DNA of 64,000 bases from Eledone cirrhosa (GCA_964016885.1 CAXHJY010000244.1:13091-77090), one strand, 5' to 3'. Shown: positions 30,478-34,015, counted from the first letter of the stretch. The notes: generated by a model from the letters alone, not told the origin. Program-made: numbers and translations.

Positions 30478-30656
30478 CAAAGGAAAAAAAGAGTGCTCTA
30501 TGTATAAAACAGAGCTATTTAATCAGAAAGTAAACAACACAAAATATAACTAATCCATTACCAAAGGTTTCAGGACACAGACATGTGTCAATATTGTCTG
30601 TGTCCTGAAACGTTTGGTAATGTAGTAGTTATATATGGTGTTGTTTACTTTCTCAA
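30478..30656. mobile_element. Fold-back derivative of the 33630-33830 hammerhead element
   Basis: Palindrome centred on AGACA-tgtgtcaatat-TGTCT. Both arms carry GAAAC(C/G)TTTGGTAATG. Confidence 0.85.
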
Positions 30657-30672
30657 TATATATATATGTGTG

Positions 30673-30755
<83 letters not shown>

Positions 30756-30756
30756 G

Positions 30757-30807
<51 letters not shown>

Positions 30808-30832
30808 GTATATATATATATGTATATATATG

Positions 30833-30901
<69 letters not shown>

Positions 30902-30942
30902 GTATATATATATGTATATATATATATGTATATATATATATG

Positions 30943-31025
<83 letters not shown>

Positions 31026-31032
31026 GTATATG

Positions 31033-31090
<58 letters not shown>

Positions 31091-31136
31091 CATGATACAT
31101 ACATACATAGATACATATATATATATATATATATAT

Positions 31137-31358
31137 GACAGTCGATTGACTTTCGTCAAATCGGACCGAGGAAACAATGTTTCCATTGGTCTTTCCAATT
31201 GCTAATACTATCTATCGGTCGCAACTCCAGGTAGAAGGAGCAACGTGAAATAAAATGTCTTGCCCAAGGACATAACACATCGCCCGGTCCAGGAATCGAA
31301 CTCACAACCTCATGATTGAGAGCTCAATTCTCTTACCACTCAGCCACGCGCCTTCACT
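31137..31358 (-). mobile_element. tRNA-derived SINE family 3 (full head)
   Basis: Minus strand: A-box-like TGGCTGAGTGG, B-box GAGTTCGATTCC, then CCTTGGGCAAGAC. Body homologous to 48795-48924 and 52705-52812. Confidence 0.85.
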
Positions 31359-31414
31359 ATATATATACATATCACTACATATATATACATACCTAAATAT
31401 CACTACATATATAC

Positions 31415-31461
<47 letters not shown>

Positions 31462-32504
31462 AGCTATGTAGCTATGTATGTATGTATCATATATATATAT
31501 GTATTATGTTTATTTTTATATATGTAGTGATATGGATGCGTGTATTTATGTATGTATGTACGTATGTGTTCTCTCTCCCTCTATCTCTCTTAATTTTGGG
31601 TTTATTTTTGACCGGCCACCTTCCCGGTGGCAAGGTTGTTAAAAAAACAAACAGAAATTTTCGCTGTTCTATTTGCAATTGTTCTTCATTTGAATTGTAA
31701 GAATGTTTTGCAGATTTCGAAGATTCCAGATATCGCGGCCATTTGTAGATCTTCGATAAAGTAGCTACGTTCTCTCGCCATAAATTCAGTCATACATTAG
31801 TTCAGATGAGCTGGTATATATCCCGTAGGCCCAATAATAATTGTTTCTATTTTGGGGCACAAGGCCAGCAATAACAACAACAATAGCTGCAATCGTTGTC
31901 AGTGAGTGCAGTAACCCAACATCAAAGGAATAAAAATAAAAAAAGGAATGAAGGCAACATTGAGAAGATAGTGCACTGGACGTTATGAGAGACAAAACAG
32001 ACAAACAAAAAAAGACGACAAAAGCAGAGACGAAGAGAAAAATGGTACAGACGCCGACCCTGACCTTATGTCTGAGTCACCTGACGTGAAGGTGGCGTGG
32101 GACTTGAACGTTCAATTTAATCACGATATACATGAAAGAAGATATTGTTATTACTGGGGAGAAAGAGAGAAATAAAGGAAAAGTCTTTAATTTAATTGGT
32201 CGATCGTTGGAGACAAAGGAAATGGATTTCACGGCCGTTTGAGATTGAGATGCTAAATAGAGTCTGTAACAAAGACAAAAAGGAGCGCTTATAATTAATA
32301 GAGAAAAGGCATTGTCTGATGAGATAATTAATGTTAGCAACACCTGAGGGATAGAAGAGAGACAGAGAGAGGGGGAGAAAGAGAGGGAGAGGGGTAAAAA
32401 GAGAGAGAGAGAGGGGTAAAGAGAGGGAGAGGGGTAAAAAGAGAGAGAGAGAGAGAGAGGGGTAAAAAGAGAGAGAGGGGGGAGTTGGAGAGTGGGTTGA
32501 AGTC

Positions 32505-32757
32505 ATACTAGTTGTAGTAGTAGTAGTGCGTGGCCCATCTCTGTTGCTGCTGCTGCTACTGCTACTACTACTACTACTGCTGCTGCTATTGCTACTACTA
32601 CTACTAATGCTGCTGCTTCTACTACTACTAATACTGCTATTACTGCTGCTGCTGCTACTACTACTACTACTACTACTGCTACTACTATTAATACTAGTAA
32701 TACTAATACTACTACTACTACTACCACTACTATTACTACTACTACTACAACTACTAC
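32505..32757. repeat. (CTA/CTG)n trinucleotide repeat
   Basis: Direct reading. Confidence 0.9.
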
Positions 32758-32893
32758 TGAAGAATGATATCCGAAACGTTACGACTCTCTCATTACCACA
32801 GCAGAGATCCGACGAGCTTTTGTTTCCAGAGTTGGGCCAGATCGATACAGATCGAACTTTGAGCTGATCAATAGCGAAACGCGCGTCACTACT
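32753..32893 (+). ncRNA. Two adjacent hammerhead-like motifs
   Basis: CTGAAGA(32757) ATGATATCC GAAA CGTT, and CCGACGA(32809) GCT...AGC GAAA CGCGCG TC followed by AATAAA and (TA)n. The 3' half of the second motif recurs at 54985-55090. Confidence 0.5.
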
Positions 32894-32932
32894 CAATAAA
32901 CGTAATGAAGGCATAACAATTCGTCCTTTTAC

Positions 32933-32976
<44 letters not shown>

Positions 32977-32979
<3 letters not shown>

Positions 32980-33258
32980 AAAATGTTTGACCCCGATGGC
33001 AGAGCTCAAGCCGTTTCGACGGGTATTTCTGGACTTAGAAATAGCCGTCGAAACGGCTTGAGCTCTGCCGTCGGGGTCAAACATTTTCCTATTACCCACT
33101 CTACTACCCTAAGTATTGAGTACTCTGGTGCGTTATGGTCCATCTGGTTCCTTACCAGTCTTCCTTCATTATATATATATATATCGATATATGTTCGATT
33201 AGATATATATATATCAATATATGTTCGATTAGATATATATATATCGATATATATTCGA

Positions 33259-33302
<44 letters not shown>

Positions 33303-33495
33303 GAAGGAGGTGTGGTAAGGAACCAGATGGACCATAACGCACCAAAGTACTCAATACTTAGGGTAGTAGAGTGGGTAATAGGAACGAGTAGGACGCCGAC
33401 GGCTGAGCTCAAGCCGTTTCGACGGCTAATTCTGGACTAAAAAAAAAAAAAAAAAAAAAAACGGCTTGAGCTCAGCCGTCGGGGTCCTACTCGTT

Positions 33496-33498
<3 letters not shown>
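32977..33498. mobile_element. Two tail-to-tail copies of fold-back family B (32977-33170, 33300-33498)
   Basis: Palindrome GAGCTCAAGCCGTTTCGACGG...CCGTCGAAACGGCTTGAGCTC plus the tail ACCCTAAGTATTGAGTACT..GGTGCGTTATGGTCCA. Confidence 0.85.
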
Positions 33499-33540
<42 letters not shown>

Positions 33541-33584
33541 CGGCGATGTTATTAATTCTGGCAATATTACACAAATATGACCCT

Positions 33585-33630
<46 letters not shown>

Positions 33631-33698
33631 TTCCAACCTCACTTTCAATTTTAATAGATTTTCAATCTCATTTCCTATTTTTATATATTTCATAACAT

Positions 33699-33766
33699 CT
33701 CTATCTGATGAGCGAACTAGACATATGTTAATATTGTCTGGGATCCTGAAACCTTTGGTAATGGAG
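33699..33766 (+). ncRNA. Type I hammerhead ribozyme-like motif in TA-flanked element (33630-33830)
   Basis: CTCTAT CTGATGA...TAGACA-loop-TGTCTG...GAAA CC-ttt-GG TA ATGGAG. Stem I 6 bp, GUA triplet; the base of stem II is imperfect. Confidence 0.72.
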
Positions 33767-34015
33767 TAGTTATATATTGTATTGTTCACTTTCTAATTAA
33801 ATAGCTCTGTTTTATACATAGAGCACTCTTTGTGTGTGTGTGTTTGTGTGTATAAGTGCGTGTGTGAATAAGTGTGCGTGTTTGTGTGTATAAGTGCGTG
33901 TGTGAATAAGTGTGCGTGTGTGTGTGTGTGTGTATACGAACCCCAAACAAGTTTAATGAATTAACATCAATAGAGGTCAACAGCTTACAAAAAAAAAATG
34001 ACCACAAGGGGGAGT

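Follow-up and report, generated by a model that had tools for sequence, protein, structure and literature searches.

The window, by which we mean the whole 64,000-nt stretch of Eledone cirrhosa DNA analysed here, is AT-rich, microsatellite-laden animal DNA, about a third of which was masked as simple repeat. It holds a single-frame open reading frame (ORF) for a rhodopsin-type 7TM receptor (36501-37706, plus strand) and a LINE with AP endonuclease and reverse transcriptase (RT) in two frames (60617-63200, minus strand), which is the sole RT among the frames scanned. An ORF for a Penelope-like element (PLE) reverse transcriptase or GIY-YIG was also sought, and no PLE-type domain was detected in the 125 of 279 candidate frames scanned. 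A repeat of roughly 600 bp is present in three copies 95-97% alike (34664-35268, 10476-11080 and 63725-64000), and contains a short frame with a C2H2 zinc-finger match slightly below the Pfam cut-off. Self-BLAST of the window revealed 22 local inverted pairs, many of them laid out as (TA)n, tail plus arm, turn, arm, (TA)n, and at least six unrelated hammerhead or hammerhead-like families occur within these 64 kb. The family examined most closely, family A, is represented by an intact copy and by a palindromic one.

The intact copy carries a type I hammerhead motif on the plus strand (33692-33773), recognized by descriptor scans and by a constrained fold. Helix I pairs CTCTAT (33699-33704) with ATGGAG (33761-33766) and is extendable, with bulges, to 33692-33704/33761-33773. 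The core CTGATGA (33705-33711) is followed by a helix II region of 36 nt (33712-33747), in which AGACA (33719-33723) faces TGTCT (33735-33739), then by GAAA (33748-33751), by a helix III of the form ACC-TTT-GGT with a TTT loop (33751-33759), and by the predicted cleavage base H17, A33760, after which the cut is predicted. C3UGANGA9, G12A13A14, an A15.1-U16.1 pair, a UH cleavage triplet and three helices are all present, as expected of type I. The complete hammerhead that an earlier note on this DNA had placed at 33699-33766 is thus borne out, both by the descriptor scan for type I hammerheads, which matches this very interval, and by the hammerhead-constrained fold, which at -15.5 kcal/mol lies 1.8 kcal/mol above the minimum free energy (MFE) fold (-17.3 kcal/mol) and in which helix I reaches 33692/33773. 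Rfam was silent: no hammerhead match was returned for 33640-33830 at E<=10, nor was any found among the best 150 of the 640 matches of a wider scan, the output of which was microsatellite and hairpin noise. Helix II of this copy exceeds the 5 bp given in the earlier note and is less regular, the MFE structure pairing about 33717-33741. The G10.1-C11.1 pair that closes helix II is absent from the intact copy, in which T33747 precedes GAAA and the base of helix II is mismatched (most public reads have A at this position), and the palindromic helix/loop III that characterizes dimer-type PLE hammerheads, present in families B, C, D and H of the window, is not found in family A. As the intact copy lacks both features, it is best called a candidate ribozyme.

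Four of 14 public runs were aligned to the intact copy (33626-33826, 80% likeness), namely two RAD-seq raw-read sets of organism A from a separate study (X12 and X13, with 1135 and 1036 reads aligned), and two sets of contigs, X1 from organism A, which may derive from the source sample (1723 aligned), and one from organism B (95 aligned). The RAD figures given below count reads rather than loci, and a few loci dominate them. From these alignments, the limits of the family could be drawn. The T-rich 5' extension of the intact copy (33627-33691, plus strand) is nearly missing from other copies, as RAD depth is 7 and 2 at 33682-33688 versus 164 and 141 at 33689-33695 in the two RAD runs. The 3' part (33774-33831, plus strand) usually meets (TA)n at 33803, behind which at least 35 X1 contigs have TA-repeat loose ends, and has an optional tail (33804-33831). 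This tail opens with a GCTCT/AGAGC hairpin (33804-33824), directly past the usual junction. Within CUGAUGA, the only variation common to all three organism-A runs, among the 40 best-supported variants (91 more being recorded), is at N7 (33709). Read ends at 33795 and 33798 in X12 and X13 were rejected as biological ends, since they fall at an AATT site and were taken as the RAD restriction cut (the assignment of the enzyme being itself inferred).

The palindromic copy (30446-30653) lies between two (TA)n-type microsatellites (29800-30445, extending left beyond the stretch read, and 30654-31095), which both of its outer ends adjoin. From left to right, it consists of an inverted, 5'-truncated arm on the minus strand (30446-30583), which starts at the equivalent of 33735 and bears a 79-nt tail up to the (TA)n tract, of the helix II hairpin, and of a tail-less sense arm on the plus strand (30579-30653), which runs from the 5' strand of helix II, the counterpart of 33719, to the (TA)n tract at about 30654. 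The palindrome proper (30525-30653) has 59-bp arms (30525-30583 and 30595-30653) that are complementary at 54 of 59 positions, with five mismatches, and its centre is the helix II hairpin AGACA-loop-TGTCT, so that it mirrors the 3' half of the intact hammerhead. As the earlier note had it, the homologue pivots exactly on AGACA/TGTCT, and the CUGAUGA half is swapped for an inverted GAAA-side half. Loop II, at the palindrome centre (30584-30594, plus strand), is in sense orientation, matching the intact loop at 9 of 11 positions in sense versus 2 of 11 in antisense. Folded as DNA, the palindrome reaches z = -13.6, and none of 200 shuffles is equally stable. By BLAST, the inverted arm is 92.8% identical over 97 nt to 33735-33831, and the sense arm 85.9% over 85 nt to 33719-33803. 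The description of the whole as a palindromic insertion holds for the mirror repeat centred on helix II but not for the insertion as a unit, since the inverted arm exceeds the sense arm by 79 nt, of which 37 are homologous to the intact copy.

The differences between the two arms are distributed over both of them (three on the right, two on the left, relative to the intact copy), as expected of ageing after insertion and against a library chimera. Moreover, read allele counts show that the two arms share variants found in a minority of the family (T at 33741 accompanied by loss of 1 nt, T at 33787 and T at 33747), which indicates that both arms come from one donor.

This architecture is Penelope-like, as proposed in the earlier note. 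A 5'-truncated inverted copy placed head to head, a tail on one arm and insertion into an AT-rich or microsatellite target are traits of the EN+ Penelope-like elements, and families B and C of the window have the same layout as the palindromic copy. Arkhipova et al. 2013 (PMC3846280) described inverted pLTRs with a shortened 5' end and a tail on one arm, together with 18- and 38-bp palindromes at pLTR 5' ends, for which they inferred self-priming. Similarly, Craig et al. 2021 (PMC8557442) described inverted 5'-truncated copies with 30-40-bp tails and a bias towards microsatellites. Family A differs from these pLTRs in that no ORF lies between the repeats, in its tail of 79 nt versus 30-40 bp, and in having a hammerhead helix as the palindrome of the junction, a connection that the portions of both papers available to us do not draw for PLE pLTRs. 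Hammerheads of PLEs were reported by Cervera and De la Pena 2014 (PMC4209133), with opposite-strand motif pairs 100-700 bp apart and a U3-A8 core variant that also occurs in family C here. Type I topology, a long helix II, a short helix III and dispersed single motifs are common to those hammerheads and to ours, whereas the intact copy has a non-palindromic loop III (TTT) and no C11.1 directly before GAAA. Inversion points are not mapped on the hammerhead fold in the available portions of that paper, and no mapping of PLE inversion points on hammerhead helices was found in the open literature, as far as its accessible text goes. Thus, inverted tailed pLTRs and self-priming at palindromic junctions are already known, while the link of turn points to ribozyme helices, of which the earlier note knew no description, was not found published in those same texts.

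Two other classes of element were considered for family A. A MITE or DNA transposon was rejected, given the unequal arms, the lack of terminal inverted repeats at the ends and the variable centres. The non-LTR retrozymes (preprint 10.64898/2026.07.22.740005) are likewise short, non-coding, hammerhead-bearing units derived from PLE ends, but they form tandem arrays, whereas family A occurs as dispersed monomers and inverted pairs. This class was also set aside, as the window holds two dispersed copies and no tandem array, and no same-strand go-back joint occurs among the 15 listed joints described below. In metagenomes, an 18-nt family A motif was retrieved at 35 loci, the 12 best BLAST matches being 20-32 nt long and taken as chance, and the family A pattern had no locus in viral contigs.

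The main claim of the earlier note was that inversion points are fixed by stem II. In the public reads, most aligned RAD reads cross both helix II and CUGAUGA and end at the 5' edge of helix I. Summed RAD depth at 33703-33709 is 62% (406/653) and 68% (389/570) of that at 33745-33751. Fifteen of 16 joints were listed, of which two are skips and 13 are opposite-strand joints; 12 of the latter come from single X1 contigs and one, at 33704/33760, from 58 and 70 RAD reads. These opposite-strand joints are read as head-to-head because almost nothing of the family lies upstream of 33689. In 12 of the 13, one end falls at 33692-33705, with CUGAUGA kept, and in the remaining one at 33713; that all 13 have an end at or before 33713 has a probability of 2.9e-6 under uniform ends. 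The other ends are spread over 33724-33783, making the joints asymmetric. Loose ends point to the same edge: among the 24 groups listed (of which there are 215 more), those before 33692 (71 and 79 reads in X12 and X13) and 33693 (121 and 124 reads) are, by eye, inverted copies that start at the 5' strand of helix I and turn at about 33690-33693, with CUGAUGA also inside the inverted arm in the 33693 group. The lead to follow is that turn points cluster at the 5' edge of the ribozyme, and perhaps at the cleavage site. As a side observation, inverted arms start within a few bases of the predicted scissile bond (33757-33764) in four of the 13 joints (at 33758, 33760, 33761 and 33763), with P about 0.03 post hoc; an apparent joint at this place could also be produced by helix I pairing.

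None of the 13 listed joints lies on the helix II diagonal, versus 0.46 expected if uniform, which amounts to an absence of enrichment at helix II and not to avoidance. The palindrome of the window is itself not among the listed X1 joints, so that this comparison has no positive control and its sensitivity to helix II turns is unproven; RAD fragments with a restriction site on both arms are likely lost. X1 contig depth drops about 40-fold from 33745-33751 to 33703-33709, which may leave room for many copies ending or turning within helix II, although divergence from the reference would also give such a drop. An inversion point fixed at helix II is ruled out for family A, though there may be a hot spot. 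The turn on helix II, and with it the loss of the ribozyme, hold for the palindromic copy alone: the label 'ribozyme-dead' fits this copy but not most of the inverted copies seen, which keep CUGAUGA. As to the presence of palindromes in independent reads, inverted joints of the family are found in raw reads of a separate study, but the locus itself was not seen among the listed joints. Nor does a helix II turn need a ribozyme-specific rule, since the element contains ten inverted microhomologies of at least 5 nt, helix II among them, and two of these, again including helix II, have the shortest loop (11 nt). With the copy of the window as proxy, the 13 joints show no more microhomology than the background does.

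The other families of the window show how varied such turn points are. Family B, unrelated to A, comprises seven copies: two palindromic stumps with the long-arm/short-arm layout, placed tail to tail over a TA tract (32975-33500), and five more at about 51650 (51650-51852), 52480 (52480-52593), 55170 (55170-55342), 55707 (55707-55870) and 60372 (60372-60555). In these copies, GAAAC-GGC..GCC-GTC with its palindromic loop III is a candidate 3' half of a hammerhead; no CUGAUGA half was found in any of the seven window copies, and the family B pattern had no locus in viral contigs or prokaryote genomes. In the near-symmetric copies at 32975, 33293, 51650 and 55170, the turn lies within a long hairpin immediately 5' of GAAA. 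Family B may thus turn regularly in helix II, and it provides the best remaining support for a helix II rule. Its arms are on average 5.6% apart within copies versus 18.8% between copies, with the own arm nearest in four cases out of five, so that the mirror half was made, or homogenized, copy by copy. Five short arms of this family end at an identical TTCCTAT running into TA.

Family C consists of three palindromic stumps at 1386-1702 (stump 1446), 40546-40830 (40591) and 50386-50745 (50443). Their arms hold the U3-A8 hammerhead variant, with a TTGAAAA core, a 4-bp helix II and GAAACCGGTA, and in the two symmetric copies the turn lies some 45 nt upstream of this variant. The palindrome of family F, with a 52-nt loop (9886-10187), turns on a 4-nt inverted match that is revealed by a second copy (9424-9600), and no hammerhead was detected in this family by descriptor scans. 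Families C and F thus establish that turn points outside hammerheads occur in the window. Hammerhead motifs with no helix II inversion are found in families D, E and H. Family D has two copies with a long helix II (12150-12316, plus strand, motif 12227; 48256-48422, minus strand, motif 48345), and each begins with an identical 21-nt hairpin right after a TA tract. Family H has three copies (48094 and 48586 on the plus strand, about 51990 on the minus strand), one of them with a longer palindromic helix III, and family E a single motif (17228, minus strand). Six stumps of families A-C are asymmetric, and in five of them it is the arm without a tail that extends further 5', a weak trend (P about 0.11, one-sided): the palindromic A copy (30488), C 40591 and B 32975, 55707 and 60372 agree, and B 33293 has the opposite polarity. 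Family F 9886 fits this polarity provided that its left run-on is a tail.

Taken together, the copy at 30446-30653 is likely an ordinary head-to-head Penelope-like stump, with its halves likely joined at a convenient self-complementary spot that is not a fixed one. More specifically, we give a probability of about one half to its being a dead-on-arrival head-to-head PLE-type insertion in a TA microsatellite, the halves of which, two separate cDNAs, were joined at insertion via the helix II strands. The endonuclease of the element would nick both strands of the TA tract. Reverse transcription primed by one nick would begin at an inner site, about 33803, and that primed by the other nick at the outer end of the tail. 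Of the two cDNAs, the first would extend past loop II, its last bases being the complement of AGACA, and the second would halt earlier; both would then anneal via the helix strands, with fill-in to follow. Helix II would be a likely but non-obligatory joint; in family A, the longer cDNA would usually reach the 5' edge of helix I, with the result that the ribozyme core would be kept. If reverse transcription is target-primed, the orientation of the loop identifies the first strand: it is the arm whose own orientation the loop shares, in this case the one without a tail. Annealing of two cDNAs accounts for the tail, for the donor variants shared by both arms and for the asymmetric read joints; the 5/6 polarity and the concerted arms of family B also speak for it. 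Against it stand the lack of a linked PLE ORF, the weakness of the polarity, with one opposite copy, and the background-level microhomology.

This two-cDNA reading leans on the Poseidon PAc protein, which in vitro cuts and extends both target strands, with two RT start sites bounding the tail (Frangieh et al. 2024, PMC11167929), and which shares with family A the AT-rich targets. Initiation takes place beside a stem-loop in that system, and the usual 3' end of family A, at 33803, likewise abuts a hairpin. In contrast, the available main text of that study is silent on inverted insertions, and family A has no protein assigned to it. In the same study, insertion in vitro persisted in hammerhead mutants, and the cleavage site was not the end of any RNA-seq read (PMC11167929).

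The best of the rival explanations, which we regard as rather unlikely, is that the copy started out in the form common in family A, as a longer palindrome with its turn at the 5' edge of helix I, and later lost its centre. Long palindromes are unstable, and once two copies lie head to head their helix II strands are directly repeated (one AGACA per arm), so that a microhomology deletion would give an identical junction. The parent form does exist, as symmetric fold-backs at about 33690-33693 are present, by eye, in the independent reads, and other stumps of the window have lost centres or parts of arms (B 55811, B 60498, the right arm of C 1446, and C 40684); microhomology-mediated deletions were reported in Penelope copies (PMC3846280). 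A deletion would, however, leave the loop on either arm equally often, whereas five of six stumps weakly favour the tail-less arm.

More improbable still is the mechanism favoured in the earlier note, in which one nascent cDNA snaps back on helix II and primes itself. In its simple form, it fails: with target-primed initiation, the loop orientation ties the first strand to the short, tail-less arm, and a strand that folds back from this arm is unable to copy a 79-nt tail onto the longer, inverted one. The turn does fall exactly on complementary helix strands, the cDNA strand folds the helix II hairpin, the concerted family B arms are compatible with self-priming, and the latter was proposed for palindromic junctions of PLEs (PMC3846280). 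The asymmetry could then be recovered if the endonuclease both cut and integrated a hairpin or duplex intermediate, endonuclease resolution having been put forward for tails (PMC8557442). Nevertheless, the cDNA hairpin is no stabler than shuffles (z 0.11), and helix II accounts for none of the 13 listed joints. Finally, a fold-back chimera formed at the hairpin during library preparation or assembly is scarcely credible, for although the locus is not among the listed read joints and a run of about 24 A (33440-33463) at the centre of the neighbouring family B palindrome, the copy of opposite polarity, may be a homopolymer or assembly error, the arms show differences at 5 of 59 positions, spread over both, their ends and flanks are distinct, and raw reads of a separate study contain the inverted joint of the family.

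Returning to the annealing of two cDNAs, we would only tentatively extend it to a rule whereby the hammerhead fold sets where Penelope-type elements turn: one cDNA would extend as far as the 5' edge of helix I (as in 12 of 13 joints), the opposite arm would often begin at the scissile bond (4 of 13), and the turn would instead fall in helix II where this helix is long and perfect, as in family B and the palindromic A copy. If true, TA-tract stumps would record, like fossils, both priming from two ends and cleavage by the ribozyme in vivo, a still unexplained step of PLE transposition. A single locus of this kind is, on its own, an ordinary dead insertion. Its interest comes from a genome with several high-copy stump families whose junctions map onto the ribozyme fold, in which turn points, loop orientation and tail side could together separate snap-back, two-ended priming and later deletion, and which bears on how PLEs form inverted repeats and tails and on the role of the hammerhead. 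Further palindromes or inverted pairs, several of them by TA tracts, lie in the window at 46755-46938, 17303-17412, 37990-38098, 49435-49855, 60569-60637, 1795-2174 and 7911-8116.
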